From the NCBI GenBank assembly GCA_035084275.1, contig CM068743.1, positions 52,204,001 to 52,268,000 of the forward strand: a stretch of 64,000 bases of DNA, given 5' to 3'. This DNA comes from Hydrolagus colliei (Eukaryota). This document shows positions 6,624-63,660 of this stretch, one piece after another. The position numbers and the translations under genes are program-made. Position 1 is the stretch's first letter. Each line of letters starts with the position of its first letter. The notes under the pieces are model-generated. The model saw only the letters and a program-made list of their open reading frames with translations, had not been told where the DNA came from and did not search any database.

Positions 6624-6935
6624 AATAATAATAATCTTTGCATTTGATGTAGCGCTTTCCACGTCTTCAAGATGTCTCAAAGCCTCCACTGAATATACTG
6701 TAAGGTGAATTAAATGTATATTTTGTAGGCGAAAGGTGGCAGCCAATTGCGCACAGCAGTGTCCACAAACAATCGTGAATTGATAAAAACAATTTATTAT
6801 TGTTTTTTATTTGAGCGATTATTATCAGGTGTGTGAGTAAGGAAACTCAACCAAGGTTTTGCCCTGCCTGGAATTGAACCCAGTGTCTTGCTTGCAAGGT
6901 GAGTGTTCTAAATATTGAGCTACAGGACTCCACAA
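6624..6935 (-). mobile_element. tRNA-derived SINE inserted in a TG-rich tract
   Basis: Full head, body and tail match the window's SINE family. Confidence 0.9.
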
Positions 6936-8829
6936 TAAATGAATGTGTGAGTGAAATTGCACAAATATGTGAATGAATAAGTGTGTATATATGTGTGAAT
7001 GCATAAGTGTGTGTCTCTGTATGTTGGAGGGATACATTTTTTCTTACAATCACAATTCCACAAGTTCCATTGGGACACTTTTCATTGACTCAGCTGAGAG
7101 CAGTCATACAATGCTTGTGAACCTGTTGCTCAAATTATTGAAATGAAAAAAAAGTTCTTCTGTGTTGCTCTGTATCAAAACTATTTCCACAGAAAATCCA
7201 TTCACCCCCGAGGCTTCATTTTGAACAGATGTCTTGAGGGACAGTCCAGCCTGTGCAACATCTTCAACAGCACAAGAAGTGTTCAGTGTCGCCTTAAAAA
7301 GCTCCAGACCTGGGGGCAGAGGCAGGGAAACACTGCTGGATATATTTAGTGAGTTAGAAATAAAAGCCACCTTAAATCTAGGTTGACGTATTTCATGCTC
7401 TTAGCTAGATTGAATGACCACTACTCTTCAGAAATTTAAAAAGTGACTCATGACATTCAGTGTGACAGGAATGATGGTTACATTATGCTTTTTAATCGTT
7501 ACAGTGGCAAAAAGGCAGCAATTGCGTGTGCGCTGAGTGAGCGCGTGATGGATGTTGTCACAATTGGAATATTTATTATCACTTTTATCTGCCAGGGACT
7601 GAATGAGGACATTAATAGATGCTGTGCTATTCATTCTACTCATTAAAGCTGCAGTATCCCTTGGCAAGTAGTCTTGCTTGTCATTTTAATTGCTTCTACC
7701 ATACTCTGTGAGCTTCAGCCGGTGGGTCTATCGTGGCTGGGTGTCAAAAGAAGAATGGATGGCAAGAATTTTCATGGGTGTCAATGCACTATTCAACATT
7801 GGCTAGTTTTTAGCACTGGCTTTTTTTAATGTCCATAAAAAATGCACATATATCGAAAGGGATATTATAGCTTTCATCTTCAGCCACTATTCCCCAATCC
7901 TCTGGAAACCCGTCTGTCTTGTCCCCTCTCTTTCTATTCTCAAAAGCTGCCTAAAAACCTACTTTGTTCAGCCTACAGTGACGTCCAACTTCCCTACCCT
8001 TGCTCAGTGTTCTGTACCATCTCCACAAAACACTCACATTACCCTATGTGTAAAGCACTATATGAATTAAAGTTGTAATCCAAAATATTATTTGTGCACA
8101 CAAGATAGCAGCAACCAACACTCCTCCCCTCTTATACTGTAAGATATTCAATAAACATTTCAACTGGTTTAATTTGCAATACATTGTTAATGGGATTCTT
8201 TAACAAGAATTTGTGTAGTTTCAGACCTAGAAATAGACTCAGTAAGCAGGGTTTCTGCAGGTTGACATGGCATATTCCGATCACTGGAAGCAATCTCCAT
8301 TTATAATTCCTTATTAAGAAAGCATTTACCTACAAAAATACTGCTGTTACATTTTGTAGTGAATTCTGTGAAGCACTTGAGGATTGTTCTCTTGACGTGA
8401 GAAACGTTATATCAAATACAAGGACTATTATTAGAATTTCCATTAATATCCTAAATTAAATCCAATTTATTCCAATTATTCTGGCATTTACTACAATCAC
8501 AGTTTCACCTATTGAAAAATACTAGTAGTTCAATAGGTCACTGGGTACTTGCTGTATGCCAACATGTTAGATGGACAATTTCCTTTAATAGCAGCAATTC
8601 AAAGTTGTAGCTACATCAGACTTCACTTTATTATCCTAATTAGTGAATGACCCTTTAAATGCTACAGATGCTAACTTTCATGTAGAGGTGGCATACATTT
8701 TCTGTTGGTATATTAGATATATTATTTACTAAGACTTTTTAAAAATCCTTGCATTTGATTTGGCATTATATCAAGTAGTCGAAAAGTGTCAAAGTGTTTT
8801 GTAAGATTCATAATAAAGAGAGTACTCCT

Positions 8830-9030: not shown

Positions 9031-12000
9031 GTCAAGTATAGTGAAAGTGTAGTTGTAGATGAGAAATACTCCAGTATCCTGTCCCGGGAGTATCTATTGA
9101 ACAGACAACAATTCTGAGAAGAATAAGCACAGTGGAATGGCACATCTGCTTTGTAGCTTTCAGCCATTATACATTAAGTGGGAATGCACATCAGGCTTTT
9201 GGCAGAGCACATATATCTGGTTCCAGCTGCAAGCTTTCAAGTCATGGATGGTGGAGCCGATTTTTCAGGGACACCAAACTTTAAGCAAACGCTTCTTGAG
9301 CACTATTTAAATTTGTCTGTGATGGAGAATTGTTCTGAGAAACAACATTTGTAGAGAAAAAGAGAATTCATTTAAAGAGGAACATCAGCCAATGTACACA
9401 ACTCGAATGGTCACATTTCCGTCAACATTCGAGTTGTGTGCACAGGCAAAGCAGGGCTAACATCAATATACTCAGTTCCACACTAGTTGCCTCAAAGAAC
9501 TACTGGGTAAGTCTGTCTGGTCTCAAATTCTAAATATTCTGTTCACCACAACCCAACATAATTTGCAAATCTGTAATCCAGATGGGGCAGGTTCAGCTCA
9601 GTTTCCACAAATACAAGCTTTGATTTTGCCTTAGGCTCAAGGTTACAACCATTCCTCACCCATTGACAAATAGCAATTGGGCCCAGTTCTGCTGTTAATG
9701 TTAATTCCACAGGTATTCCAATTACAAATGGTCCCCCAACCCTTGAAACTGTTTAAGGATTAGCTCCACATCTAGACAGCAGGGGTAGCCAGGTCACCAC
9801 CAGGGCAGCTTGCTAAATTTTGCATGTTCTTTGTCTTTGCATTTTCTCAATTTTCTTGTTGACAAGCTTCAATAACTTGGAAATAAATCTGCAAAAGAAG
9901 TGATCGTAACTTTGTGCACAGCCCAATAATAGCCATAACTTATAGGTATATTGTGCTTTAAAAAAAACTGTACTGGCAATTCTTCTTTTCTTGAACCATT
10001 TCTTGAAGTTGGATGAAAGTGCATTTTATTCGGTACTTAACATGCAATTTGCTGGCCTTTGGTAGTGTGGGTTTCTAATGGGTTCTCACTCCATCACCGC
10101 TCAATGAGTCTATCAGCAACTGTGCTATACTGTGACTAGCCCCAAAACTTCTGAGGGTATTATTTGCTCTGATTAAAATTGCTCTCCTATAAAAAAGGAT
10201 TCCTTCTACATTAATAAAATGTTGCAGAGCAAGTACCAGCACCATCACGTTTCACTTGATGTAGCAAAATGCATTCAAATCTGTCCAACACTTTCCTCAC
10301 CTCAATCTCTCTGTTCAAGCAGGAAAATGTTGGCTGTAAGCAGAGCTAGGCGGCATATCAGACTACATAATTTTAGATATAAAATTTGAATTTATGTTAA
10401 GGACAAGGAGGCTTTAAGGTAAAGTTATTTTGAGCCCAATCCTGCAGAATTCCTGTTGACCTGACACCTCTAAGCCTTTCACTAGATGTTATTGTACATG
10501 TTCTCTGTTTTAAATATCTTCTAAAAATCGCCTGTTCTGTCAGGATGCTTGTTTTTTTTAGGCAAAATACTTCACAAATGTCTTTTCCTTTATGTGAAAA
10601 TTGCCTCATCTGATGTTCCATACATTTAAGCTGTTATTGCGTCTGCAGGCAATTGAAGCCTACGAATCATAAAGCTAATACACTATGCAGTAAATCCCGT
10701 GAAGCGCTTTGTGATGTCCTACCAACATAAAAGGTGCTATATCAAATACAAGGATTCTTATTATATATTATCTTAAGCCAAACTGTTGAATTTACCTGTC
10801 CTGACTGCTGACTAATTAAATGCAACACACGTAATAATCTGAATAATCTTCTCAGCATGACTCCTTCAGTCAGGTAAATTACCCGAGATTACGTTTCAAA
10901 AATCAAGCATTAATGTCTCGCTCTGAGACTGAGAAGCAGGTGTCTGAAAATGTTCATGACCTTTTGCTATTAATACTGACTTCTCCGAATCCATAGTTTC
11001 CTTTCTTCACTCAAAGAGAATATTGTTTGACTGCTCCAATTAAAAAGGCATGACAATTTTTTTGATTTCTCATATCTAATAGGGAGCACTTCTCTGTGCC
11101 AAATGGTATATTCTTTATTTCATCTGGAGGTTTCTTTCGTCTGTGTAAACCAAGCACATTTCCATTGTACATACTCTAAAACTGTCCCTTTTAATTAAAG
11201 CTACATCAAGCAGCAATCTGGAAGCCATTACTCAGTAACTCTTCATCGTAATTACTTGCAGCTGAGAATCCAGGTCTCAGTAACATAAGAATAAAAGGGA
11301 AACTTAGTTAGTAACAAGTGCAATTGATTCCATTCAAAATTCCCCTGGTGTGCTGCCATGTTTGAGAGGAAACAAGCTTTTTTCAAGCCAGGAAATGAAT
11401 TGGCAGACTTGAGATGGACGATGTGCTGTTAGACTCACATTTTCAGATGGTCCTTGTTAAATCTGAGACTTTGGGGCTCCTGCTGTTGCCAGGATATTTT
11501 TTTTCTTGTAGCTATATATGCTTACCACTTCTAGGGAGGCTAATACGTTGACAAGCCACAGAAACCTGCCTCAGTGTTGCACTCCCGTGATAATTACCTC
11601 TTACCCTATTAAAACAAGATATCATCCCAGTTCGTAGACAGTCCTGGATTTTAAAAATCCTCCCAATCAAATGCGCATAATTTCTGATGTCGCAAACCGG
11701 TTTCGACAGAAACTTTGAGGACGATTTTGAAATATTCCTTTTAAAATATTATAGGTCGCAACGCACACATTTACACACATGCGAAGATACCTTCATTGAT
11801 GGCTTCTGTGTACGTACAGTTTGACATAAGCACAAACCACTGTTAACAGAAGCCTATTGAACAACAACTTGCATTTATATAGCACCCTCCTCTGAGGCAG
11901 CATCCCAGAGCGCTTAAGTAAGCTTACAGGTTATTTATATTGTAGGGTTCTTCACTTCACAGCTATTTGTGGGACAATACTGGCATAAATTACTGCCAGG

Positions 12001-14967: not shown

Positions 14968-15406
14968 TAATAATAATAATCCTTGCAATTAGTGTCTGAC
15001 GATATATCGATATATCGGTTATATTGGTATAATTTTTCATATTGATATGCCGATATTGGAAATTCAAATATTCAGTATATCGAAAAATTCGATATGAAAA
15101 AAACAATATCGGTAGATCCCAAATATCGGTATATCGTGTCCGGCCATATATCGATATATCGGTTATATCGGTATAAAGTGAACTTTTTCAATTTACCCTG
15201 TCGCCAGCATTGCAAACCTCCTGGGCCTAGAGCACGAATGTGCGCGCATATCGGAATTTTATTAGTGTGTTTTTTTTTGGAGGGATTATTATTAGGCATG
15301 TGGAGTAAGGAAACTTTCCCAAGGTTTCGCCCTGACCTGCCTGGATTCAAACACAGGTCTCAAGCTTGTAAGGTGAGTGGTCTAACTACTAAGCTACAGG
15401 ACTCCA
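14968..15406 (-). mobile_element. tRNA-derived SINE interrupted by a DNA-transposon end
   Basis: Tail at 14968-14989 and head/body at ~15255-15406. The central part is replaced by GATATATCG-rich sequence. Confidence 0.8.
14990..15254 (+). mobile_element. hAT-like non-autonomous DNA transposon end with (CG)ATATATCG/ATATCGG subterminal repeats
   Basis: Starts tagtgtctgacgatatatcgatatatcgg, like the TAGGG..GACGATATATCG ends of fish hAT MITEs. Many ATATCG copies with intact CpG. Confidence 0.6.
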
Positions 15407-16194: not shown

Positions 16195-17300
16195 CAAAAT
16201 AGGAACAGGACAGGCCATTCAACCACTCAAGCCTGTTCTACCACTCTATAAGATCATGGTGATTTATACCTCAATTCCAATTACCCACTCTTGCCCCAAA
16301 TTCCTAAATACGCTGATCTAATAAATATTTATCCATCTCAGTCTTGAAAATGTGAATCGATCCAGCATTCACAGGCTTTTGCATGATAGAATTCCAGATT
16401 TCCACTACCCTTTAGGTGAAAAACTGTCTCTTGATTTCACTCCTAAATGGCCTACCTCTAATTTCAAGATTGTGCCTCCTACCTCTCCGACCTGCTGTCC
16501 CCTTATGAACCTGCCAACCCCTCTATTCAGTGGGCTTCGGCCTGCTCCATGTCCCCCACCCAACCCGCCCTACCATCAGTGGACGGACTTTCAGCCTCTC
16601 TGCTCCCGCACTCTGGAACTCCATCCTACAATCCCTTCGCCTCGCTCCCTCCCTCGCCTCCTTCAAGGCCGGTCTCAAGATCCTGCTCTTCAACCGTGCC
16701 TTTTACTGCCCTCCCAACTCTCTCCCACCCCTCCGCCCTACTCTGCCCCTCTCCCTCGCTTGGGTCCCGTCCTGACTGTTCAATACCCTAGAATGTCCTC
16801 CCAACGTGAAATGCATTCTATAAATGTAATTTTGTTGTTGTTCTGGATTCTCCAGCAGAGGAAATAGTTGCTCTGTGGATACCCCATCGAACCTCTTTAT
16901 TATTTTAAAACCCTCAATCAGATCACTTCTCAACCTTCTCAACAAAAGGGAAGAGAGACTATGTTTATTCAACCTGTGCTCACAATTTAACCCTTTACTC
17001 CCTGGTATCATTCTGGTGAATTTGCACTACACCCCCTAGAGCCAATATATCCTTCTTGAAGTGTGGTGCCCAAACATGAACACAGTACTCCAGCTGGAGT
17101 TTGACCAACTCCTCTAAATAGTTGAAGCATAATTTCCTTTCCTTTATATTCCAGACCCCTTGAGATAAATGTTCAACTGCCCATCAGCCTTTTTAATAAC
17201 ATTTTGAACCTGTGAGCTTGGTTTAGTGATTTCTGTACATTGACACCCAAATCCCTTTGCTCTGCCACAGTTTTTTAGTTTCTCATCATTTAGAATCATT
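16195..17300 (-). mobile_element. CR1-clade LINE 3' end, split by an L2 insertion
   Basis: The ORF at 16703-17011 contains LRRLRSDLIEGFKIIKRFDGVSTEQLFPL (CR1 ORF2 C-terminal motif). CR1 tail ggccattcaaccactcaagcctgttc at ~16210. Confidence 0.85.
16475..16840 (+). mobile_element. L2 3' fragment (subfamily A) nested in CR1
   Basis: LLHVPHPTRPTISGRTFSLSAPALWNSI..SLRLAPSLASFKAGLK motif and tail aaatgtaattttgttgttg. Confidence 0.9.
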
Positions 17301-17467
17301 TAGATCTCTAGCCAAATTGCTATTGATATACCTCTCCTGAGGCTAACAGGAGAGGTATATGCTGGATGTAATATTGTATTTTAAATGGAAATGAAAAAGT
17401 GAACCGAGTACAATAATTCAGGATGCACCAGGATAATAGAACTAGAGGATATAAGTTTGGAACAAAA

Positions 17468-17602
17468 GCGTAAAATACTGCAGATGCGAGAAATCTGAAA
17501 CAAAAACAGAAATCACTGGGAACACTCAGCAGGGCAGGCAGCATCTATGGAGAAAGGAAAAGTGAGTCAACGTTTCAAATCCACGACACTTTGTCAGAAC
17601 TC
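17468..17602. mobile_element. One arm of the palindromic Penelope-type element, with a minus-strand hammerhead-like core
   Basis: Clearly homologous to 44184-44315. Appears to lie within an old + strand CR1 3' fragment (~17340-17690). Confidence 0.75.
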
Positions 17603-20945: not shown

Positions 20946-23019
20946 ATTTAACACAATGTTAAACACATCTAGTCTTGAGGTACGCTGATAATACCATGAA
21001 AAGGGGCCTCACTGTCATCATCCATTTGCTCAGTGGGAATTAGGTGGTGATATTATTGAGAGTAGTCCTACATGGCTAAATAGGTCTATGAAGTACACGG
21101 CTAATTATTTGGTGAAGTTTACTGTAGTTTCTATAAGCTAACCAGACAGTTAATAGTGACACATGCTAGGAGAATCATGCCGGCACTGGGTAAATTATAA
21201 TTTCAGTTGTAGATATTTGCTGTCCCTAAGCTCATAGCTTTGTGGGTTATATGATTCATTATGTTTTAGGCATGTGCCTGGTGGGGGAGTGAATGCAGTG
21301 ACATGGGACTGAAAAAGTTCAACACTGTGTGTTTGATATATTCAGGATTAATCATGGCATTCACATCAGTAAATAAGTCAAAAGTGTGGAAACGAAAACA
21401 GGCAGTGAGGCAGCTAAGTAAGAGTGCAAGAGTTCAATCCCCAAAAAATCACAACCCTTATATCTGAAAATCAGATCTGTTTACATACATAAACTTGTCA
21501 TTGCATTTTAAAGAATGATAAAAAAGTTGTTTATTCCCCGTCTGCTCATGAATCAGATCTTATTCTCCTCCTTGCATCCTGATCTACTTCATGATCTCAG
21601 TATCATATAACATAGCAACATAAAAACAATCCAACTGGACAACCAATAACTGCAGTGCCTTTTATGATTTTTGGACTGAACTAATGCTTTTTTAGCACAT
21701 TATTTATGAAAATAACATTCTGCCAGATCTAAATACTGTTTGTACTTCAGGACAAAGCTATAGTATGTGAGCGATGGAAAGTATATTCCAGGGGAATCTG
21801 AAAACATTGACAATTTGCAGACTCTCAGCATTCTCAGATGTGCTGCAAACTACACAACATGTAAGTGCAAGTCATACAATTTCACAAGAGAAGCTCAGAT
21901 GAAGAAGCCTCTTCCATACTTTTAGACCAAACCTCCTGGTTGTACCTAATCTGCCATATTTCCATGACAGCGTTAAGCTATTTGTTACATTTAAAAACAG
22001 CTTGATATTACAGTACTTTAAAAAAACAGTTTGATGCTATGACTAGGTGGGTGTTTTGGAAAGATGAGATCAGATTGTCCTGGTCTCAACCACTCTTCCT
22101 AGAAACTTGATCCATTTGTTCGTTACCAGATGACAAAGGGTTACCCAGGATTTTGAAAGCCCCTTGAAAACGTAATCCAGTCCTGGGTAGTTATACAGTT
22201 GTGGTAAGAAGAAGTACAGGTAAAGGTACAGAACGTGAGACAGAAGAGACATCAAGTGAGCAGGTTTCAAAATTGAGGGGCAATTAATTAATTGTTACAA
22301 ACTGGGGACATCTACGGAAACACTGCACAGATCATCCCACTCGCGAAAGAAAAGCCATAATTTGTCAAATCTGCAAACAACGCATTAAATTGGGTTTGGT
22401 TCCTAAGTGATTAAAAAAAGTTTTTAAAAAGTGATTAAACGTGATTAAAAATGCTTTTATTAGAAAGCAAGTTGCACCATAACATGTGAAAAGATGAAAC
22501 ATCTGGCGCCTGCTTTACTCTCCAATTCTTAACATTGGAGATGACTTGGTGAAGGGTAATCTGAGTAAAAGCTTCTTCACTCCTAGTGCTTCTGTACAAG
22601 AATGTAATCTGTTTCCCGGTCAACAATCCCTCAGTTAAACTTGAATGGCAGAATGGTGGAGTGTTATTAGTGAAGGTGGGTTGGGTTAAGGAGATGAAAG
22701 TCAGGCTAAATTCCCATTTGCTATGCTATGTTGTATAGGCTCAATCAATTTCTTTGCCAAATTTCTATCTAATTCTTCATTGAAAAATTGTGTGCACCAA
22801 CCTTTATGGTTTGCAAACAAAATAAATTTACTTGATTGAATTTTTCCTGATTGATGCCATAAATCAGGAAATATTCAATCAAGAAAGAACTGAAAACACA
22901 CTTATGATTGAACACAGGTTGGCTGCCATTGTCCTTCACAATGTGCCTCTGCTGGCTCCCTGGGAGGTCTATGCTACTTATTCACCACTCTTTGTGTAAA
23001 GTAATTAAATCTGTCCACG

Positions 23020-23330: not shown

Positions 23331-23389
23331 ACCCTTGTAAAAAAGTACCATGGTAATGTTGGTAGTACATGGTACTTTTTTACAAGGGT
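23331..23389. mobile_element. 59-bp miniature inverted-repeat element with perfect 22-bp arms
   Basis: acccttgtaaaaaagtaccatg (23331-23352) and catggtacttttttacaagggt (23368-23389) are exact reverse complements. Confidence 0.7.
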
Positions 23390-23512: not shown

Positions 23513-24584
23513 AATCCCACCTACCTCAGGTGAAATTAGAGGAATGGACCTAGATTGAACTCCAATCATGATTTGGTGTGATAAACCAAAACAAATTGTG
23601 GAATTTAGCATATATTTTAACAACATACATTTTATTCTCACCAATTCCATTACTTTTTAAGTACTTCACTGGTAGAGAAATGCACGGAATTTCTAGCCAC
23701 AGATGCTGGCTTGTTAGAGCTGGGCCTAAATGAACATGCAGCAATGTGGACTCTTGCCAACAACTGTTAGTGTATTTTCTGAACTAAAACATATTCCCAT
23801 AAACTCAGGTTAATATTACCACACACAGCATGCTTCTGACAGAAATTCTTATTTACACCCCCTGAAAAAAAAAGTAGTGATAAGAGAGACTGTAACCTTG
23901 TTGTAAGTCATCACCCCAGAGGGAACTAAACCTGTCATGGAAAATGTTGCTTTTGTTTATTAAGCTGCAGGTACAGCACGCTGACTGGCTGCAACACCTG
24001 CTCCTAATTGTGCCAAGGAATTCGTCACGTTGCACTCGCTCCTGTATGAATAACTCTTCCCCCTCGGGGTGCCATGTGTGCTGGCAGTGAGCGAGTTGGC
24101 ACATTATAGTTACGCTACTGTGGCATTATATAAAGGAGAATAGATATTTGTACACTTTTGCCCCAGCATTAAGAGTCTATTGAGCTAGAGGAGACACACC
24201 TGGCAAAAGCCTGCAGGAACCCAGGGAAAATTTAGGGGATGCATTCAATACCTCAAATCTGCAAGTCCAAGGCTTTCCCCCTCCCTCTTGCCCTCAGCAT
24301 CCAAACCTGTCCCAGAAAGTGCTCTGAGACATTACTCTATGTGTGTCAGTGCTCATAAGTGAGACAGCATCAGGAAAGAAGTGCATAATTAATGACTATT
24401 TTACTCATAAAATACCCTGAGCACATTAAGGCGACCTCATTCATTGTTAGCACATCAGCGCAGGTGTGCTAGCGTGCTGACAATGAGTGCATTATTACCT
24501 GTGATGTGCCGACTCATTGATTGACAGGTGTGTTGACAACGAATCAGTTAGCACATTATGGTTATTAATGCAGTGTAAGGTAGA

Positions 24585-24933
24585 GCTCCCAAGTCAAGCT
24601 CAAAAAGGACAGAAAGCTCCTGTGAACCAGAAGGGAAAAGCTCCCTTGATTTTAATTTTCAGTATGAAAATAGACGGTGAAAGTAGGGCCTCACGATTCT
24701 GTTGGGTTTGGGAATTGTAAGCAGGAGATGTCAGGGATAACCGGCTTGTGGCAGCTATAGCATTGTCATGTACTGATCCTTCAACACTGGCTCTTGCAAT
24801 CATTGCAGAACTGAAGGAGGATTGTCTCACCCACTAATAGGGAATGTGAGCTGGGGTTTGACCATTATAAGTCAGGTTGGTCTTACATTCCACCGATGAT
24901 GTGTTGTTGCAATCGTAATTCTGAACCAGAGGA
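24585..24933 (+). pseudogene. Decayed 28S (LSU) rRNA fragment, domain V 3' part to the sarcin-ricin loop
   Basis: Collinear matches to conserved eukaryotic LSU stretches: ggacagaaa.ctcc.gtg.a.cagaaggg.aaagctc.cttgat, gtgaaag..gggcctcacgat, gggataac.ggcttgtggc, cacccactaatagggaa.gtgagctgg, gatgatgtgttgttgc. Contains many substitutions and deletions. Confidence 0.9.
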
Positions 24934-25029: not shown

Positions 25030-25577
25030 TCTCTGACCCAAAAGCCACTGAAAACTTGGTCCATGCCTTTGTCACCTCTCGGCCGGACTATTGGAACGCC
25101 CTCCTTGCCAGTCTCCCCTCCACCACAATCCACAAAATCCAGCTAATTCAAAACTTTGCGCCCGCATAATCACCCACTCCAAGCTGTCCCTGAGAGGATC
25201 GACTTCAAGATCCTCACCCTTCTTTTCAAGTCCCTCCACTCCCCTGCACCCCACTACCTCTCTGATCTCCTCTCTCCCCAAACCAGCACCCGCTGCCTTC
25301 GCTCAACCAGGTCTGGCCTCCTCCATGTTCCCCGAATCCCCTGCTCCACCCTCAGCAGCCGTGCCTTCAGCCAATATGCCTCAAGGCTCTGGAACTCCCT
25401 TCCTCATTCCGATCGCCTCGCCCCCTCTCTTTCCAGTTTCAGGTGACAGCGCCTTGTCCACCTTTGGTCACCTTTCTATCCCTGCCCCTGGCTCGGTCCC
25501 GGGATCCGCTACTGTGAAATGCTCTGAGACACCGTCCAGCATGGAGGGCGCTATATAAATTGAAGTTGTTGTTGTTG
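25030..25577 (+). mobile_element. L2 3' fragment (subfamily B)
   Basis: LVHAFVTSR.DY, ERIDFKILTLLFKSLHSPAPHYLSDLL...SRAFSQYASRLWNSLP; tail ggagggcgctatataaattgaagttgttgttg. Confidence 0.92.
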
Positions 25578-27789
25578 CAGCAGTAGCCATGTGTGCTAGT
25601 TATAGGAGAGTCCCATTATCAGCACACAACATCAAAATCATTGCCCTTAGCAACAAAAGGAGTATCAATTTTGTTGGTGGTGTTCCTTTGAATAATCAAA
25701 AAATAGATTTAAAAGGGAGGTTAGAGAAAAGTCTTTACACAGAGGATTGTGGTATCCTCAATCCAATTAGTGAATTGTAAAACTCTCTGCTGCAAAGCAT
25801 TGATGAAACAGTTCAAGGCTGTAGTCTCATTGTTCAAGTTCCCCACATCACCTTGCAAATCTGCTATTGTCATTGGTGTAACATGGTAGGTGCCCAGTAA
25901 TTATTTATTCTTGAAGGATAAGTGGGCAGAATATTACTAGCACATAGTGAGCAGAGGAAGACATCCCAGCAACTGCGGAAAATGCTGGTGAGAGTGGTTA
26001 CCAGCTTGAGCCTGCTCTCTCTCTTGAGCCTGCTCTTATTGTTAATATGCACAAGCCAGGTGATCCTGGCTTGTACATATTTACAATAATAAAGATTTGA
26101 CCTATAAAACAACAACAAAATTACATTTGTATAACACCTTTCACATCGGGAGGGAGTCCCAAGGTGCTCAAAATATACAGAATTAATATCAAAATATTAC
26201 TATTAATATAATATACAAATATAATTTGTTATATGATAATTATCACCGGTGGTAGGTATTGCATCACATACCCCATTGTATTGCTCTATAATTACACAAA
26301 GTTGTCTAAGCCTAAATTATAGCCTGAAAAACATTCTCAGTTGCTGTAACATTTACTTTATTGCTGTACGTCTGAATGGTTCAAAATAGCTGCTTTGAAA
26401 TCTATATTTTAACAATAAAAGAGCTAGAGATAATTGCAATAATTGAAGCAAATCTGACTCCATTACAATGTTGGTAAAGATATATGTTGGTGATGTTAAA
26501 ACTTTGGACATTGTATTTCTAGCTGGAGGCTTTATAATTTCTGAAGGATTGCAGGTTAATATTGTTAATTTGTCCCAGTCCTAATAACACACACTTTCCT
26601 TCACTTTTAGCCATGGAGTCCCTTTCTATTGACCAAATCAGCATTGATTGCATGAACGAACATATGTCTCCCTTCAGCTAAAATGAGAGACTGTCTTAGG
26701 TTACAGGCCTCAGAATTCTGTATATATGTGGAGAGCATTGTAGCTCCTATTATGAAATCAATCTGAACTTTACTTTGAGCACGCAACAGGAAACTAATCT
26801 GTGTTTGGGATGACATTTGCGACAACACTGAACTAGTTCACTGATTGCTTCCAGCAAAGCTTGTTTGATCATCGTCATCCAAAGTCTCCTTAAAAATAAC
26901 CTGAAAACACAGGGCTGACAGCTGTTTGCATGAGAAGCGAAGCGTCTCCAAGTAAACAAGGAGAATTTCAGAAGGTGTTTCTTGAACCCATGCCAGAGAC
27001 TGAGTGCTATGTGGCTCCAAGCAGACTACATTAATCTAGGAATCGTGAATTCTAGCATTACAAAGTGCTGAGGCAAATATAACCAAAGAGATTTAGTCGG
27101 TATTTTTTGTGGATCAGATGCATTCTTAGCAACTTTGTAAACTTGGGGATTAAGGATATAAATAAAAAATTAGGGATGATTTTAAATAAACAAGACATAT
27201 TAATACTTTTCATGGAGATTCTTTGCATTTGATGTTATTGTTATTGAAAATATTGGAAAGAAATATAATTGAACAATTATATGCATGTGCCCTCGGTCAG
27301 TTTTAGATCAATGAGGTGAACCCTGAAATTGGGATCATATCGTTACTGAATCCTTCACCGTTTCAAGGTCAATAAAATGAATAGATAACTCTCAATATTT
27401 TACCTGATTTCCTCGGATTGAGGGTACCTTAGTTAAGATGAACAGGCTCTGTGGATAGACTCTGGAAATCATAGCAAGGCTGAGGTAATCATAGTTTGCG
27501 GAGAACATGTTGTTTACCAGGCAGATTTACGGCTGGAGTCACATTCTCAAACCAATGCCCTGACAAATAGGGTGGTCTTACATGGAAAATTACCCTGCTG
27601 CAAGGTTACCATGAGAGCCAAACAATGTGTTGGTTGGGCTTGGGGCTGTGCTGGAGTCTTTCTTGGAGCATATGAACCGTGGAAACACCAGAGTGTTTCT
27701 TGGCAAGAAAAGTCAGCTTGATCTGCAGTGGGGCAGTTTGCCATTCAACCCCAGTGTTTCAGTTTGGGTATAGGGGTGACACAATTTAG

Positions 27790-28504: not shown

Positions 28505-29062
28505 TTTTGGCAGCTGTACCAAGTGTAAGACTATTCCAATGCTTTCCTCACCGGTCTCTCCTCTATCACCATTCATGAAATCTAGGTTATCCAAAATTCT
28601 GCCGCAATCTCACTTGTACCAAACTTCGCTACCTGATTACTCCTCGCCAGACTTCACTGGCTCCCTGTCTCAGAGAGGATAGATTTCAAGATCCACACTC
28701 TTGTTTTCAAATCCCTCTACTCCTCTGCACCCACCTAGCTCTCTGACCTCCTCTCTCCTCACAACAACACCCCCTGCGTTCGCTCTACTGGATCTGGCCT
28801 CCTCGTCCTTCGAATCCTCCTTTCCACCGTCAGCGGCTGTGCCTTTAGCCACTACACCCGGAAGCTCTGGAACTCCTTCCTCACCCCCTCTTTTCCTATT
28901 TTCAGGTCATGGCTAAAGACCTTTCTTTTCGACCGCGCTTTTGGTCATCTTTTTCCCCCTCCCACTGGCTCGGCCCTGGGATCTGCTATTGTGAAGTGCT
29001 CTGTGACGCCATCTGGCATGGAGGGTGTTATATAAATCCAAGTTGTAGTTGTTGTTGTTGTT
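28505..29062 (+). mobile_element. L2 3' fragment (subfamily B), followed by an orphan subfamily-A tail at 29063-29140
   Basis: ctcctcgccagacttcactggctccctgtc (LARLHWLPV), gaggatagatttcaagatc, (GTT)n tail. Confidence 0.9.
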
Positions 29063-30559: not shown

Positions 30560-30868
30560 AGGAGTCCTGTAGCTCAGTGGTTAGAGCACTTGCCTTACAA
30601 GCATGAGACCTGTTTTCGAATCTAGGCAGGTCAGGGAGAAACCTTGGGCAAGTTTCCTTACGCCACACTCCTAATAAGAATCCCTCAAAAAAATTGGTTA
30701 TTTCAATCCACGACTGTTTGTGGGACACTGCTGTGTGCAATTGGCTGCTGTGTTTCACCCACAAATATATAGTCAATTCAATTTACAGTATATTCTATGA
30801 AGCACTTTGAGACATCTAGAAGATGTGAAAAGCGCTATATCAAAATGCAAGGATTATTATTTATTATT
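30560..30868 (+). mobile_element. tRNA-derived SINE, full length (short variant)
   Basis: ggagtcctgtagctcagtggttagagcac...tatatcaaaatgcaaggattattatt. Confidence 0.92.
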
Positions 30869-31149
30869 ATACTATAAGGGCCAGGGTGTACTTTGCGACT
30901 TCACAACTGATGCATATGCAATCGGACTCTGTTATGTGTGACACATCCATATAGATCCATATATCAGACTCCGTGTAAATCGGGTTACGTTATAGAATAA
31001 CTGTCATTTAAGGACATTGATTTTTTTTTGCTGATGTTTCTGAACTGCTCTGCAGGCATGTGTGCAGGAAGCCAGTCACCACTCTCACCAGCATTTTCAG
31101 CAGTTACTGGCAGTTCTCCTTCCTCTACTCACTATGTGCTAGAAGCATG

Positions 31150-35233: not shown

Positions 35234-35630
35234 ACAACAACAACAAAATTACATTTCTATAGCGCCTTTCACGTCAGGAGGATGTCCCAAGGTGCTGGAC
35301 AGCCACTACTACAGACTTGAGCTGAGGATGGGGGAGAGGGAAGGGGGGGGATTAGGAATTGCCGTTGGGTCCATCGAAGAGGAGAGTCTTGAGGCGAGGC
35401 TTGGAGGAGGCCAGGGAGGGGGCGAGGTGAAGGGACTGCAGGATGGAGTTCCAGAGGTTGGGGGCAGAGTGGTTGAAGGCTCGCCCGCCAATGGTGGGGC
35501 GGGTAGGTCGGGGAATGTGGAGCAGGCCAGAGCCTGCTGAGCGGAGAGGGCGGGCAGGTTGGTAAGGGGATAGGAGGTCACGAATGTAGGGTGGGGCGAG
35601 GTTGTGGAGGGCATTAAATGTGAGGACCAG
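35234..35630 (-). mobile_element. L2 3' fragment (subfamily A)
   Basis: Homologous to 1570-1970; (CAA)n tail at 35234. Confidence 0.92.
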
Positions 35631-37114
35631 GATCAGGAAGTGTCAAAATGCAACAAGACATCTGAGTATATTCCATTTAAGTATATTCTAGATGTCGGTT
35701 CATTTAACAATGTGAAAGAAGTTGAAAGAAGACAACATTTTTGGCAATTATCTGTTTTTAGATTGACAGGACAGGAAGGTTCAAAAATTCATGATGGAGG
35801 AAAATACAAGTTTACCACCAAACCAACATAAAACCAGTAAAGCAATGGGGGGAACTGATGTTTGAAACCAGCATGAAAGACTCTGGAATAGGAACAAAAT
35901 CTTTGTGAGACATTAGGACGGTGAATGGACCTGTTCCAACAAAGTCATTTCAAAGGAAATACTAAAAAAGATGAAGATTTGATCTGTGATAAAATGTCTA
36001 GTCTGAGAGACTCGCTGTTCATAAAATGTTCACTGTAGTCTCAGATAAAACAGTTTTTAATGCACTCATGACTCAACCATATTAATTGCCAGATGCATCC
36101 TCCAAATCTTCTCTTGATTTTCCCATGGACTTTTCAAAACTGGTCACTGAAATATAAATATACATGTTTATAAAACAAAACCCTATGTACTGCAGGCTTG
36201 GTATCCAATAAACATCTGTTTTTATTTAGTTTCAAAGTAACATATCCCCCTGTGTATACAGTAATCACAACGCTGGCCTCCAATTTGTAAAAGTATTACA
36301 GTATATATCCATTTTCTGCTTCATAAAATCAATGCATAATGTGTTTGAGATTTTCACATGAAATTAATGTTCAGAAAATGACACCTGAATCTAGAATAGG
36401 AGGAGATCATTCAGCCCATCGAGTCAGTTATGTTAGTTTATTAAGTTTATTAGATCATGGAATATCTTTCAGCAATTTAATATTTGCTGGTGCACAGAAG
36501 TGGATGGTGTGGGGTGGGTGGGGTCTGTGGGAGTAGTTAAAAGTCTACAAACTCATTTGACAGATTCAGGTAATATCACAAGCTGTACAAAAGGTTCACA
36601 ACAGGAGAGGAATGGTCTTTCAGGTCCTTCCAACACACCATGTGCAGATTACACTGAGGGGTGTAGTGTTCACCCCCTCACATAATCTCCAGAGGGAGGT
36701 GAATAATCTTTGTAAAGATCCTAAAAAAGTTTAAACAGTAAAATTTCTCCCTTTGTCCCCAAGGTAATCAGCTCCAAACTGTAGGATATCCATCTAATAC
36801 CATTATTTACATTATTCAGCTCTGACCGGTTGCATTCCACAGATGACATTCCCATAGTCAAGACTGAAACCACAGGATTCTTATATTATTAACTCTCTCC
36901 ATGTCTATCTTCATCTTGATTATTACTTTCTGTCTTGTTCTAAATAACCAAATATTCATTCAATTTCATTTAAAAGGATTAATCAACACTGCTTTGGCTG
37001 CTTTAAAGGAAACCCGTTCCACATACCTGAAATCTTTCATCTCCCTTGAGGCTTCCCGATTTTATCCTTATGTCCTTCATTTTTAACCTTGTATTCATTT
37101 AATATTGTTGTTTC

Positions 37115-44157: not shown

Positions 44158-44183
44158 ATAAAACATATAATAAAAAGTAGTGA

Positions 44184-44389
44184 AAATGCAAAATACTACA
44201 GATGCTGGGAATCTGAAACAAAAACAGAAGTTGCTGGAGAAACTCAGCAGGTCAGGCAGCATCCATGGAGAAAGGAAAAAGAGTCAACGTTTCGGGGCTA
44301 CAACCCTTTGTCACTTCTGACGAAGGGTTGTCGCCCCGAAATGATGCTGCCTGACCTGCTGAGTTTCCCCAGCAACTTCTGTTTTAGTT
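44184..44389. mobile_element. Short palindromic Penelope-type retroelement with a 16-bp TSD and hammerhead-like cores
   Basis: The arms aaaacagaagttgctgg.gaaactcagcaggtcaggcagcatc and gatgctgcctgacctgctgagtttc.ccagcaacttctgtttt are inverted. taataaaaagtagtga is duplicated at 44168-44183 and 44390-44405. CTGACGA..GAAA at 44317-44341. Confidence 0.8.
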
Positions 44390-46784
44390 TAATAAAAAGT
44401 AGTGACTGCTAGAATCACACCTATTTGTCCTACAGAAGGCACATGGGCTGATAACACTTTTCTCAGGATTATTGAAATGTAATTAGTGCTTTGTTGCCAG
44501 TAAAAATGCCTTATGGTGTGAACTGTGTTTTCACAGTGCCTCACAGTGTGAATTGCGAGGTGGGAGGGAGCCGAGGTTTTGCAAGACAGCATCAAGTACT
44601 GGGTGGTTCCTTCAGTAGGGATTGCATCCCGAGGTACTTTTTCCAGCAGAGAGGCACCAGTTACACTGCAACTGTCTTGGGGTAGAGCTTTTTGAATCTC
44701 TATGTTCCTTCTATAGGAGGCAATGCAATAGATTTAGCAGTTACTCCTTTCTATTATATAGCTGGAGTTTCCCACAGCTGGATTCCAGTAATGCTACTGA
44801 TTTCCTCAGGAGAGTTTCTTCAACCCCAATTTAGTGACATGTACATAGCTCAGGCAGTCTATGTATATTTGGCTTATATTTATTCAATGGGATCAATTGC
44901 GTAAAAGGATCATATTTACCTGCTACAAGGACATTCCTGTTAACGGGCTTTTACTCTACTCTTATTGCATATCTTATGTCCACCAGCTCCATTTAGCTTT
45001 TTCTTCAAACCATTTATTACAGCTGCCTTTACATTGAGGAAGCATTTTGTACTCATTGTTAAACATAAACTCATGCAATTATCAGGAGATAAGTGGACTG
45101 CTTTCTAGATTTGGTCATGTGCCTACATTCTTCATAAAATGGTTCACCTGATCTTAATCCGAAATGCTTGATTTTTATCAGTCATTCATATTTTCCTGGC
45201 ACCGGTTCCATTTCTGTGGATTCTGTGCAACATCTGGAACATCTGTGACACCTGGTATCAATTATGGTTGGAGGAAGTGGTGGCAGACAAGAAGATTTTT
45301 GACGCTTATGTTGGTCACACAGTCAATTCCCAGTAAAAATGTTTTACGTGTGATGACCTGTGACAGGATCCATAGGGTTTTCTTTGGCGATGAAAAAAAT
45401 TGCTCTCATAGGTGATTGAAAGAGTGTTATTACATTTACCACAATAGGTCAAAGGAAAGAGTTTTAATCCAAACAGTTGCAGCACGGAGAAACAATTTCA
45501 ACTACAATCGTAGCTCTTATTTTATGAGGGACTCAGTGCTTGGTCTGGATCTTGGGTCATGCTGAATGTCATCTGTGGAGGCCAGTTGGATAAAGTTGAG
45601 TAGGGGACAGTTTGGGATGGATAGATACTTCCACGATTCTGCTTAATTGTCTTTGCTGATCACAGCCTAACTGCAGAAATGTTTGCACAGCTCAGTGGCA
45701 TAAGTCAAACAGTTGAACTTGTTCGCCACCAATCAGGTATCAATGTTGGCTCTTGAATACATTTGGTCACTAAAGTGGATTGTGAGTTTCCAGAGCAAGA
45801 ATATTTGTAGTGAGTGAAACAATCGGAGTAAATGAGATGGAATGTACGATCAGCTAGATTTTATGTGGTGAGTTTTATGAGTACAGTAGCTTGACAGGCT
45901 CTGTGGCCTTTTCAAGCACCGTGATTTCTTATTTTCTTAAATAAAAAAGGTGTGAAAAAGGAATGAATAAACTAAACAGAGCTTGTGTAACACAAGGTTG
46001 GAATCCTTCAGAGAATGTTTCAAGCTGAATACTGAATTTTTGGCTGAATGCTCTTGTTCCCTGCTCCTCAATATTGGGGATTTGCTGGAGTATTTTTCCT
46101 TTGCAAGTGTGGTAGGTGTCTTATTAAATCATAGTGTTTGGTAGAAATAAATTATCTACAATAAAACTTTATATACTTACTTTACCACAACTGCCTCCAC
46201 ATGTCTTTCAGTATTGCATCTCCATTAAAGAAGCACAGCTGCACACTTCATTATAACTACTGAAGTGTTCAAATATTTCCCCCAAATATACCTGTGTAGA
46301 AGTAAATAGAAATCACTTAACTGTTTGAAGCCACACATATACAGCAGAATTGTCTTTTATTTAAAAAGCATGAAAAATGTTTTTCGCCTGTTAATTTGGA
46401 TCTGATGTATTTAAAACATTTTGGTAATAATAATAATCCTTGCAATTTGCTATAATGCTTTTCACATCAGGAGGATGTCTCAAAATGCCTCACAGGGCAA
46501 TTAATTTAATGATAATTTGAAAATTGCAATATCGTTTTGACCTGTGCAGGTAAAATCAAAAAATTGACCGACCCCCAGCTCTGTCATTTCTCTGTAAGAC
46601 TTCTCTATTTACTGCCACACCCCTGCCTTTTCACTATACCTTGTAATTTCTCCTATTGTAATCCATCCTTCTTATGTCAAGAAGTCACTAAAATGTGACT
46701 TCTTGACATAAGAAAATGTCACATTCCAAAGTGTGAGGAATCCACCAAAATCAAGCGATGTCATTGTTTTTCTTTCTTGCCCCA

Positions 46785-51599: not shown

Positions 51600-52432
51600 A
51601 TCCGATGACCTTTCCACAGTGAATGTTAGAAGGAAAGAAGTGGATTTTGATGCCAGCTTATACATCATGACCTGAGTACAAAGTCTAAATTGTCTCTCCA
51701 GTACTAGAGATCTATCCCAGAGAGGATCGACTTCAAGATCCTCACCCTTGTTTTCAAATCCCTCCACTTCTCTGCACCCCCCTATCTCTCTGATCTCCTC
51801 TCCCCACAAACCAGCACCCGCTGCCTTCGTTCCTCTGGGTCTGGCCTACTCCATGTCCCCCGAGTCCTCCGCTCCACCCTCGGCGGCTGTGCCTTTAGCC
51901 ACTACGCCCCGAGGCTCTGGAACTCCCTTCCTCACTCGCTTCGCCTCGCCCCCTCTCTTCCCAGTTTCAGGTCACAGTTGAAGACCCTTCTCTTCGACCG
52001 AGCTTTTGATCACCTTCCTGCCCCTGCTCCTGGCTCGGTCCCGGGATCCGCTACTGTGAAGCGCTCTGAGACGCCGTCTGGCATGGAGGGCGCTATATAA
52101 ATCGAAGTTGTTGTTGTTGTTGTTGTTGTAGAGATGCTATCCTTCAGATAAGACTTTGAGCTGAGGATCCACGTGTCTGGATAGGTGGATGCTGAACATC
52201 CAGTTACACTATTTAAAAAGAGATAGGCGTTTTTCCTGGTGTCCTAATGAAAAAACCTCCAGATAAATTAATCATTCATTTCATGGCTTCTTGATCAATC
52301 AATTATTTGCAAATGGACTGGTATGTTTGCCTAGAATATATATTTATAGACACTATACATGGTAATAACTACCTATGAAGTTTTTAGAGAAGTTTTAATG
52401 TTATCGGTAATGTAACACAAGCATTATTATTA
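51600..52432 (+). mobile_element. Ancient Deu-domain SINE split by an L2 insertion
   Basis: After the L2: gctatccttcagataagac..gctgagg...aggtggatg...cactatttaaaaagag..ggcgtttttcctggtgtcct, which follows the Deu-domain order. Confidence 0.6.
51712..52128 (+). mobile_element. L2 3' fragment (subfamily B), relatively young
   Basis: CpG largely intact; tail ctgtgaagcgctctgagacgccgtctggcatggagggcgctatataaatcgaa(gtt)n; flanked by tagagat on both sides. Confidence 0.93.
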
Positions 52433-53985: not shown

Positions 53986-54355
53986 GGAGTTTTGTAGCTT
54001 AGTGTTTGGAGCACTTGCCTTCATAAATGAGAGGACCTGGGTTTGATTCCCGGCAGGGCAAAATCTTGGGCAAGGTTCCTTACTCCACATGCCTATGTTT
54101 ACCTAGTAGTAAATAGGAACCCAGTTGTTAATCGATTTGCAGATCATTTTTCCAGGGGTAATAATCCCTTCAAAATAAATAAATAATAATAATTTGATCA
54201 CTCAATCCACATATGTTTGTGGGACACTGTTGTGTGCAATTGGATGCCACGTTTCACCCACAAAAAAATATAAAGACAATTCACTTTACAGTACATTCTG
54301 TGAAGCACTTTGAGACATCTCAAAAACGAGCTATATGAAAGTATTGTATTATTAT
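53986..54355 (+). mobile_element. tRNA-derived SINE, full length (long variant)
   Basis: Head with B-box ggtttgattcc; includes the ~60-bp tgtttacctagtagtaaataggaaccc...ccagggg segment. Confidence 0.9.
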
Positions 54356-56300: not shown

Positions 56301-58284
56301 TGGAATTTTGCATGCAGCGAAAAAATCTGAATCCAAATTTTCAAACCCTTCATAATCCAAAATACCATTGGCATATAAATCATTCTGGGAGCTTCCTGAG
56401 GTTAAGGAGATGTGATGACTTTTAAAATAAAACTCTACTTATTTGTAATGCAAAAGATGATCTATTAATATGATTACTTGGTAACAATGAAAATTCCAGT
56501 CTAGCTATTAATAAAGTAATGAGAGTTGAGGAAAACATGAGTTGCAGCCAAATGCCTCAGCGAAGTCTCTTTTTCCAATCTAACATAAGCTATTGCAGAA
56601 TGTCAATTATTAACAACACCAGATGGATTTGAAGCCCTAATGAAAAAAAAGTGGTTTTAATTTAAATGCCTGATGATCTCCAAAAGGAAATAGAGTCAAA
56701 AACTGAATCTGACTGATTGCTATAACTAGCAAACCGGGCACTGCGTTCATTTGATTCTGGGTGGATGTGAACATAAATGGAATGATAATAGAAATTATTA
56801 TCCAATATTCTATTGGCCACATAACATATTCTCAGTCAGTTAGACACATGCCATTGCATCAAGTAGCCAGTCACAGAGAAGATGATGACATAAGTAAGGA
56901 ACTGGGTAATACCAACACACAGTGTTACTTTACTGAACAACAACACAAGTTTCCCCAGGAATAACGCACCCTTCAACATTTGGCACTCCATTCAAACAGA
57001 TCCCGCAGTCAGAGCTCTAGAAGCAGGGAAATATTATTTCACTTTCTTTCTATGGTAATTTGAAATGATGTTGTACTGCATCACTTTAATTTACAGCGAC
57101 CCAATCGTACCACTGTTGTTTAGCTTATCATTTGCATTCATTCCTTTCTGTTTCTGTTTGATGGAACAAATAAAAAGGGAGATTATAGTAATCATGTTTC
57201 ACCAACAGGCTTGTATGCTCTTCCAGCCTTTTTATTCAAACTTTGTGAAGCAAATAATGAAAAAATTATATTTAGCTCAGGGCTGGTTCTGATCAGACTG
57301 AACTGATCTCGTCTAAGATACTGCACCCAAGATTAATATGTTCATTATCATCATATTAAGACATTGTCGACAGCAATTAAATTGACCTTTTCAGAGCTTT
57401 TTAAATTTACCTATCTTTCTGATTGCTATAACACTTTAGATATGATTCAATAGAATCTTTGCTTTCTCCTTCTCATTTACCTCATGAGCGTGTTGTCACA
57501 AGTTTGGTCATCATTTTCCCGAATCCAGGAATTGTTTTTCTCTTTGAGATCTTTAAATTATCAACCCAACTACCCTGGCCAATTTGGGAGGGGGTTATGT
57601 GGAGGTGTGGAGGAGGGATTTGATTTCATTTGCAATTCTCCTCTACCAATGTTAAATAATTAGGTTAAATAATCTGTGCATTTTTGGACAGGGAGCATTT
57701 CACGTCAGGATGGTGTCACAAAGCACTTCCCAGGATTTGCCTTAACTCTAGTGACTGTTTAGTACATTTGGAATACTGTAATATTGTATTTTTTCTGTGT
57801 CTTAGTTTCCTAAGGCATGGTTCATGGAATACTGTTCTGAAGGTGCTGACTTGTAGCTGCTTCGATGCACATAGTACTGTATTCCCATTTCATGTCACGG
57901 TCAATTGGTCAATTGTTAGAAAAGAAAGTGCTTGAATAATATCCTTATATTATGTCCTTATCGTCATATTATATTCTAAACCTCAAGTACTCTGCTTTAC
58001 TAAAAACCTTGTGTCTTCTGACTCTCTCTGCCTGCTGTTCTTTAGCTGAGTGCTGTGAATATACTTTGTGCAGCATAGGGTGTGCTCCTAGAAGGTATGT
58101 ACTCTGTTATTCTGTTGATATCATAATATTTCTTTGCATTTGATATAGAGCTCGCAACATTGACAAATAAGTGTAGTGACTGTATCTGTTGACAAATGAT
58201 GTGGCTGGTTTATGGACAGAAATGTCCCACAAACAGCAAGGAGTGAAACTATGACCAGTTTTTAATCTGAAGGTTTAGCTATAT

Positions 58285-58612
58285 AATAATAATCCTTGCA
58301 TTTGATATAGTGCTTTTCACATCTTATTGATGTCCAAAGCGCTTCACAGAATATACTGTAAAGTGAATTGACTGTATATTTGTGGGCGAAATGCGGCAGC
58401 CAATTGCACACAGCAGTGTCCCACAAACAGTCGTGGATTGAAATGACCAATTTTATTATTGTGGTTTTTTTGGACGGATTATTATTAGGTGTGTGGAGTA
58501 AGGAAACTTGCCCAAGGTTTACCGTGACCTGCCTGGGTTCAAACACAGGTCTCTCCAGCTTGGTCTCCCCAGCTTGCAAGACAAGTGCTGTAACCACTAA
58601 GCCACAGGAGCT
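58285..58612 (-). mobile_element. tRNA-derived SINE, full length; an older SINE tail lies at ~58130-58260
   Basis: Near-consensus. The head carries a small internal duplication (ggtctctccagctt ggtctccccagctt). Confidence 0.92.
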
Positions 58613-61620: not shown

Positions 61621-62207
61621 CGAAAGAACCACCTGATTGAACTTTGGTCTGAAATATTACAGGTCTGCAATATCTATCAGTAGATTATTCCAGCTGACAG
61701 GTGTCAGTGAGTATCTCAGACACAGTATCTCCACGTGCTGGCTACTACAAGAAATTGTCAATCATTTGCAGCACCTCCTCCTCACACTGACAAACAGCGC
61801 TCCTGAATTGGCCATGATGATTTACAGGGATGTCTGCAGTGGACATTCATCATCCAACTTCTATAAATTTAGCAATGGGCAGAAACGGAGAGTTACATAT
61901 TCTCTGTAGGAACACAACTTGTGTTTGTATGGCATCCATAAGGTTTGTTCCTCCCTAGCTAGACCAAGACCTGAAAATTCAGCAAAAATGACACTGAGCA
62001 TAAAGGATAAATGAGGCAAGCAGTGTTCTTTGGAAAAATGAACTGGCGAGTGAGAGCAGAGGGCTGAACTCACGAGTGTGTTGTCAGCAAGTGCTTGATA
62101 TTTCAGTAAACCACACCTCAGACCTTATTCATGTACAGTACTTTCTATTCACCTTGCTTCCTCAATGCAATCTGTAAATAGTCCGAACAGTTGCTTGTGG
62201 GAGAAAT

Positions 62208-62518
62208 AAATAATAATCTTGCATTTGACCTAGGATTTTTCACGTCTTCTAGATGTCTCAAAGCACTTTACAGAATATACCATAAAGTGAATTGAATGTA
62301 TAATTGTGGATGAAACACAGCAGCCAATTGCGCACAGCGATGTCCCACAAACAGTCGTGGATTGAGTGAATAAATTGCTATTGTGTTTTTCTTGAGGGAT
62401 TATTATTTGTCATGTGGAGTAAGGAAACTTGCCCAAGGTTTAGCCCTCCCGAGAATTGAACCAAGGGTCTCTTTGCTGGTGAAATGAGTGCTCTAGCCAC
62501 AGAGCTACAGGAGTCCAC
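62208..62518 (-). mobile_element. tRNA-derived SINE, full length (short variant)
   Basis: Full match to the family. Confidence 0.9.
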
Positions 62519-62539
62519 AGTAGTGTCCCTCCACAGGAC

Positions 62540-62702
62540 TCCACTTCGACCGTGCCTTCGGCTCCCCCACTAACTCTTCCCCCTCTCCTTCCCCCTATCC
62601 CGCCCCCCCCACCACCAACCTGCTCGGGTCCCGACCTGACTATTCAGTGCTTTCCTCCCGACGTGAAAGGCGCTATATAAGTGCAATTTTGTTGTTGTTG
62701 TA
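62540..62702 (+). mobile_element. L2 subfamily-A 3' UTR/tail
   Basis: ttcgaccgtgccttcgg...cccgacgtgaaaggcgctatataagtgcaattttgttgttg. Confidence 0.88.
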
Positions 62703-62708
62703 GTATGT

Positions 62709-62890
62709 GTGGAGTCCTGTAGTTCAGGACCACTCGTGTCGCAAGCAAGTGGACCTGGGTTCATTTGCCATGCAGGGCGAAACGTTGGATAAGTTTCCTT
62801 ATTTCACGCGCCTCTGTTTACTAATACAGTACTAGGTAGAAACTCGGGTGTCAGTCAATTGGCTGATGGCTTTTCCAGTAGTAATAAGCC
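62709..62890 (+). mobile_element. SINE 5' half (long variant)
   Basis: gtggagtcctgtag...tcgcaagcaagtggacctgggttc...gcctctgtttacta. Confidence 0.8.
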
Positions 62891-62915
62891 ATTAAATAAC
62901 TTGTAATAATACTGC

Positions 62916-63660
62916 CTTGCAGCTCAGTGGTTAGAGCATTGCCTTGCATGTGAGAAACTTGGGCTCGATTAAAGGCAGGGTGAAAACTTGGGCAAGTTTC
63001 TTTACTCCACATGCATACTAATAATCCCTCAAAAAATATATATTAGCCAATTCAATCCATGACTGTTTGTGGTACACTGCTGTGCAATTGGCCGCTGCAC
63101 TTCACCCATAAATATACAGTCAATTCACTTTATAGTACCCTCTGTGAAGCACTTTGAAACATCTAGCTCATGCAGAATTCCACCACTTGTATTCTCACCC
63201 AAACCAAACTTCATTCCTCGGTTACTCCAGTCCTCGCCAGACTTCTCTGGCTCCCTGTCACAGAGTGGATTAACTTCAGGATCTTCACTTGGGATGTCCT
63301 CCCGACGTGAAAGGCGCTATATAAGTGCAATTTCGTTGTTGTTGTTGTTCACTCTTGTGTTTAAATCCCTTGACTCCTCTGCACCCCCTTACCTCTCTAA
63401 CCTCCTCTCTCCTCACAGCAATGCTCGCTGCTTCCGCTCTCCTGTGCTGCCCTCCTTCTTGTCCCCCGAATCCTCTGCTCCACCATCGGTGGCCTTGCAT
63501 TCGGGAATTACTTGCCAAAACTCTGAAGCTCCCTCCCTCAATCCCTTTGCTGCACCCCCTCCTTTTCCATTTTCAGGTTGTGCTATATAAATGCAAGTTG
63601 TTGTCTAGAAGACGTGAAAATCGTTATATCAAATGCAAAGATTATTATTATTATAATAAT
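62916..63660 (+). mobile_element. SINE containing a nested L2-B fragment (63167-63603), which itself contains an L2-A tail (63290-63347)
   Basis: TSD tctag at 63162-63166 and 63604-63608; TSD ttcact at 63284-63289 and 63348-63353. The SINE tail resumes at 63604. Confidence 0.85.

Follow-up and report, generated by a model that had tools for sequence, protein, structure and literature searches.

Penelope-like elements (PLEs) provide the closest described systems for comparison. In the account given in PMC8557442, inverted 5'-truncated copies together with a 30–40-bp tail at one end are standard for PLE insertions, and both the way in which PLEs form inverted ends with one-sided tails and the role of their hammerhead ribozymes are stated as open questions. 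Pen2a of A. vaga combines an inverted pLTR with a 9-bp target-site duplication (TSD) and, optionally, a 31-bp tail, and the A. vaga PLE TSDs described in the same source measure 8–10 bp (PMC3846280). The purified Poseidon protein of the anole cuts AT-rich DNA and extends it on both strands; it has two internal start sites whose spacing equals the tail, and it uses mostly uncleaved RNA, with hammerhead cleavage unneeded (PMC11167929). In Schistosoma, pairs of hammerheads on opposite strands are described at distances of 100–700 bp (PMC4209133).

At a locus of Hydrolagus colliei (contig CM068743.1, analysed here as a window of 64,000 nucleotides from whose first base all positions are counted), an identical 16-mer occurs twice at a spacing of 222 and brackets a 206-bp hairpin, at the center of which two damaged minimal-hammerhead cores meet (Table 1). 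Its two ends, the TSD, and the junction all fall within 238 bp. It is probably a dead, extremely 5'-truncated PLE insertion of the inverted-pLTR-plus-tail form. This layout is already known for PLEs, and the locus is an unusually clean minimal example of it. The geometry of the insert, its asymmetry, and its TSD are observed directly, as are its membership in a repeat family and the recurrence of the head-to-head form. An earlier interpretation made from the sequence alone (the sequence-only reading) had proposed a Penelope origin, and this is supported by the inverted ends, the one-sided tail, and the TSD at an AT-rich site, which together make up the published PLE signature.

Table 1. Positions of the features of the insertion and of the second family member in the window.
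Feature	Position	Strand	Remarks
TSD, left copy	44168..44183	+	16 bp, 81% A+T
Left-arm 3' extension (tail)	44184..44216	-	33 nt, without counterpart in the right arm; homologue in the second copy
Left arm	44217..44313	-	PLE sense on minus: damaged core, helix II, GAAA, ACGT palindrome, cleavage site, 3' helix I strand, then pLTR 3' sequence
Central head-to-head junction	44314..44316	.	5' edge of both hammerheads
Right arm	44317..44389	+	PLE sense on plus: intact CTGACGA and GAAA, 3-bp helix II; 25-nt deletion takes the helix III palindrome, cleavage site, and 3' helix I strand; tail-less end
TSD, right copy	44390..44405	+	1-nt ambiguity: first base matches the element too
Second family member, single arm and tail	17465..17602	-	outer limits approximate; 83% over 125 nt

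The perfect 16-bp TSD claimed by the sequence-only reading is there, with both copies identical, abutting the two element ends flush and enclosing 206 bp in which the inverted repeat that it had described was also found. The pair is one of 10 exact direct repeats of at least 16 nt at a spacing of 50–1,000 nt in the 64-kb window, and by our reading the other nine sit in dispersed-repeat copies or low-complexity DNA. The chance of such a 16-mer is 4.9e-10 per position pair, which by our arithmetic gives about 0.03 expected across the whole window. Insertion of the target-primed reverse transcription (TPRT) type, as had been suggested, is supported. Four marks of a PLE-derived insertion were present: a TSD at an AT-rich target, an inverted 5'-truncated copy of the end, a tail in the 30–40-nt class (33 nt), and, close to the 3' end, a minimal type I hammerhead, damaged in every arm.

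Among 20 inverted repeats found in the window, none is longer than the one formed by the two arms (48 nt at 96% identity, with an inner 29-nt pair at 86%), and the folded region reaches −128.6 kcal/mol (z = −15.8), a stability matched by 0 of 200 shuffles. Folded in isolation, the arms were no more stable than shuffles (z from −1.0 to 0.6). The 3' ends of the arms face the TSD and their 5' ends meet centrally, within about 4 nt of both cores. The left arm measures 131 nt and the right arm 98 nt, both counted from C3 and the latter with the 25 deleted nucleotides included. The loss of about 26 nt after GAAA in the right arm, as reported in the sequence-only reading, agrees with our alignment, which resolves it into a 25-nt gap and one substitution. 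The description of the element as palindromic stands for its inverted arms and fails for their equality: the 33 nt at the left end are unpaired, an extension that had been overlooked. With its one-sided tail, the insert corresponds to the standard inverted-pLTR insertion of PLEs in its minimal form.

The tail is family sequence, since the second copy has it, and 7 of 19 database traces of the repeat (described below) align to its last or next-to-last base. The 3' end of the family thus looks shared across traces, with alignments ending at the tail, although the reference itself stops there, so that any longer end would have been missed. Between the arms, 5 of 72 aligned sites differ, and both have helix II variants that the second copy lacks, as expected if they come from one source. 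At this level of arm divergence the probability of an unchanged 16-mer is 0.32, so the divergence is compatible with an intact TSD. A stem between the tail and the post-hammerhead region in a two-sequence consensus fold was discarded as unsupported (0 of 25 pairs compensatory). A pyrimidine run ending in CAG at the tail boundary (44198–44215, minus strand), also present in the second copy, resembles a 3' splice acceptor; PLEs keep introns near element ends.

The hammerhead core letters on both arms, and the damage to both, are as the sequence-only reading had described them. The plus-strand core, CTGACGA..GAAA, occupies 44317–44341, and the minus-strand mirror core reads gTGACaA plus GAAACGTT-GACTC. 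In this left-arm core, C3 and the 5' strand of helix I are missing at the junction and G8 has changed to A, while the ACGT palindrome and the cleavage site are retained on the minus strand. Both cores are dead here. The 7 occurrences of the bare core pattern in the window are what chance alone would give (6.07 expected; at least 7 in 37 of 100 shuffles), and the Rfam check proposed earlier, run on the whole window and on both loci, matched no hammerhead family; weak Rfam matches to microRNA precursors were attributed to the hairpin alone. A full minimal descriptor, with G8 relaxed to a purine, a palindromic ACGT, and a helix I of at least 4 bp, matched the second copy (at 17597) and nothing else in the window; among 200 simulated windows, a match was obtained in 1. 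With the bare core at chance and no Rfam hammerhead match, the identification as a hammerhead is a family-level one: it appears to follow from the sequences of three arms taken together, two at 44168–44405 and one in the second copy. So taken, a minimal type I hammerhead with a palindromic ACGT, as previously proposed, fits the published PLE consensus. The second copy has the complete minimal-hammerhead layout, helix I included, but its G8 has become A and its helix II is decayed. A search for a TSD around it found none, and its scoring as a partial tandem was dismissed, as 1,871 of 10,000 random windows score equally.

In its details, the locus resembles D. virilis Penelope and A. vaga Pen2a as described (PMC8557442, PMC3846280, PMC2377424) in its inverted 5'-truncated ends, its one-sided tail of 30–40 nt, its TSD, and its hammerhead near the 3' end. 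It differs from them in that its inverted ends enclose neither an ORF nor a direct pLTR and in that both pieces are cut back to the hammerhead edge. Its 16-bp TSD also exceeds the 8–10 bp of A. vaga, a difference that counts against reading it as a PLE insertion. With Anolis Poseidon PAc (PMC11167929) the likeness lies in the AT-rich target, the extension of both strands, the two start sites that give rise to the tail, the ACGU palindrome, and a similar distance from core to end (131 nt here, compared to about 117–124 nt by our count for Poseidon); the sequence differs, however, and no ORF start was seen in the hammerhead here. The RT proteins linked to the present family also differ from Poseidon, carrying the CX4CxxC linker of the Neptune kind (in P0025). 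The metazoan minimal PLE hammerheads compiled in PMC4209133 share with these arms CUGANGAH, the G10.1–C11.1 pair, GAAA, a 2-nt palindrome, UH, and a short helix I. No cartilaginous fish appears in the alignment as given in the supplement text of that paper, and all three arms here are damaged. In our literature search, no description of this family or of such palindromes in cartilaginous fishes was found; Repbase or Dfam may well hold the family.

A further comparison is with the animal non-LTR retrozymes (PMC7229834; 10.64898/2026.07.22.740005), which are likewise small, ORF-less, and PLE-related, with a type I hammerhead and a long TSD. The sequence-only reading had suggested that this may be such a retrozyme-like unit, in which the mobile entity would be a hammerhead-processed monomer, a circular RNA, or the whole palindrome. 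The likenesses just listed speak for it, as do the derivation of animal retrozymes from pLTRs and the occurrence of solo monomers among them (10.64898/2026.07.22.740005). The described retrozymes form head-to-tail arrays that give rise to circular RNA, whereas the arms here are inverted, head-to-head, and no head-to-tail repeat or tandem array exists at the element. The arms moreover span the cleavage site, which is internal in the left arm and in the second copy rather than at a unit end; opening either core inside the hairpin costs 25–27 kcal/mol in folding calculations, leaving both buried; and minimal PLE hammerheads are described as cleaving poorly without protein (PMC4209133, PMC11167929). 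We consider a retrozyme-like origin very improbable. No ribozyme activity is expected of the present element, and it has no evident function.

Long inverted repeats could also be the ends of a MITE or another DNA transposon, or the product of a local fold-back duplication of one PLE fragment, and the window does contain several other short hairpins. The inverted repeat here is nevertheless not terminal at the left, where 33 nt are unpaired, the duplication is 16 bp rather than TA or 8 bp, and a single-arm copy exists. On these three grounds a DNA transposon is unlikely, in agreement with the sequence-only reading, which had taken the element for a retroelement. The TSD encloses both arms, which would not be expected of a later fold-back product. 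Taken together, a transposon or fold-back origin has a very small probability.

Shark and ray genomes are rich in similar repeats. Protein databases, which stood in for eukaryotic DNA, were searched for spurious translations of the present one. A first search gave 2 matches among 7 candidates, one of them a Callorhinchus milii gene model, and a profile search gave 22 matches, including the two used to build the profile, of which 19 are translations of the repeat. The other three, P0004, P0014, and P0015, matched weakly within long or tandem-repeat proteins and were excluded from the count. Among the 19 database gene models, one is named as elephant shark; an Ig-domain gene model of this species, P0002, codes the antisense repeat at residues 128–159, which is probably an annotation artefact. 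A near-length protein search returned no match, and the element was unmatched in phage and plasmid collections. In prokaryotic genomes a 21-nt pattern hit 3 loci of 67–68% GC with 21–22 bases matched, which we judged to be chance.

The head-to-head arrangement recurs in these traces. Of the 18 testable ones, 3 (P0001, P0005, and P0006) have an antisense arm and after it a sense arm, at a quality reached by 0 of 200 shuffles, and P0017 is head-to-head at 1 of 200; of the remainder, 3 are weak (6–11 of 200) and 11 negative. The 14 of 18 traces that thus have no clear second arm count against reading the repeats as PLE insertions. At the protein level the arrangement was significant in P0001 and P0010 only, and not in P0005 (89 of 1,000 shuffles) or P0006 (132 of 1,000). 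Tail sequence is present on the antisense arms of P0005 and P0006, whose sense matches extend to arm positions 95 and 93, close to position 98, where the tail-less arm ends. The sense match of P0001 continues to position 115, part-way into the tail, which again counts against the PLE-insertion reading. These arm-end estimates are coarse, being drawn from gene models that may be spliced.

A putative link between the repeat and PLE sequence comes from one gene model, P0021, itself possibly spliced, which joins the repeat to 30 residues resembling RT. These residues match 15 of 26 candidate proteins, with 70–80% identity to RT proteins of Mobula, Rhincodon, Chiloscyllium, and Leucoraja, and one of those proteins, P0025, carries both RT and GIY-YIG domains. 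The middle part of P0021, read antisense against the GIY-YIG end, matched at 10 of 14 positions, and 5 of 30 shuffles did equally well. When the 15 RT proteins were used as tblastn queries, they matched neither the element nor any PLE-like ORF remnant in the window, where the single match was weak and unrelated (E = 0.003). Nor did any of the 421 ORFs of at least 50 amino acids in the whole window match Pfam, so neither an autonomous PLE with an RT and GIY-YIG ORF nor a host gene was found there.

The recurrence of head-to-head traces also bears on a different source for the template. Double priming would proceed as in a PLE insertion, but the RNA would be a dedicated ORF-less species of about 130 nt, reaching from the hammerhead 5' edge to the tail, with a fixed 5' end, moved in trans and often inserted as head-to-head pairs. 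Such an RNA would explain why the two arms end no more than about 4 nt from C3, and in the second copy the sequence 5' of the hammerhead is matched nowhere else in the window and contains no PLE ORF. pLTRs are described as able to act in trans (PMC3846280), and non-autonomous PLEs exist (PMC8557442). Two loci only are available at the DNA level, however, the second with an approximate 5' limit; the junctions in P0001, P0005, P0006, and P0017 fall at differing arm positions, coarse as those estimates are; P0021 sets the same repeat beside RT sequence; and no promoter was identified. A dedicated template RNA is, on this evidence, unlikely. Likewise doubtful is its broader form, in which cartilaginous fishes have a mini-Penelope RNA, ORF-less and of a fixed length of about 130 nt, that ends at the hammerhead 5' edge rather than at the cleavage site and that a PLE enzyme inserts as head-to-head pairs by priming from both nicks at two start sites. 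If it were true, two-strand TPRT would have left thousands of natural records in the form of these palindromes, and the role of the hammerhead would be that of an RT stop or a protein-binding boundary instead of a cutter.

The course of the extremely truncated PLE insertion that we prefer is inferred as regards the enzyme, the priming from both nicks, the sequence of steps, and the cause of the common stop. A PLE RT/GIY-YIG protein probably nicked both strands of the AT-rich site 16 nt apart, leaving 3' overhangs, and each 3'-OH would then have primed reverse transcription on uncleaved PLE RNA. That the template was uncleaved at the hammerhead site follows from the arms extending across it, and at both junctions a single A-U pair is, by our reading, possible between the primer end and the template. 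The left-arm cDNA would have started at the distal internal site, giving the 33-nt tail, and the right-arm cDNA at the proximal site, giving the tail-less end. Both would have stopped within about 4 nt of the hammerhead 5' edge and been joined head-to-head; gap filling would have created the 16-bp TSD, and later decay would have added 5 substitutions and the 25-nt deletion. The two-strand, two-start-site activity of the Poseidon protein would leave this element if one cDNA were made per nick, from different start sites, and both stopped at the hammerhead. Random truncation alone does not account for both arms stopping at one landmark, which counts against the preferred reading. The shared stop could reflect a non-autonomous RNA of fixed length, protein on the hammerhead that halted the RT, or chance. 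As a single locus this is a dead repeat, and its value is mechanistic, in that it fits a two-strand, two-start-site activity known in vitro.

The window around the insertion is repeat-rich, with about 39% GC, a CpG ratio of 0.32, tRNA-headed repeats, and one rRNA fragment, the latter a decayed large-subunit piece at 24544–24878 (plus strand). An abundant repeat of about 310 bp with a tRNA-like head, probably a SINE, lies at 4392–5165, 6621–6939, 30561–30870, 53986–54330, 58283–58612, and 62205–63166. A second family, of about 400 bp and with no Pfam match, lies at 1572–1994, 16477–16849, 25184–25577, 28665–29062, 35236–35634, and 51712–52127; its frames presumably resemble the 3' end of L2-type LINEs. 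Five short near-perfect hairpins with 20–29-bp arms, in otherwise unrelated DNA, occur at 9388–9447, 22828–22886, 23331–23389, 26036–26089, and 46669–46714. At 14992–15176, an internally palindromic, CpG-rich unit of 41 bp occurs twice at a spacing of 144 bp; the two copies are possibly transposon ends.
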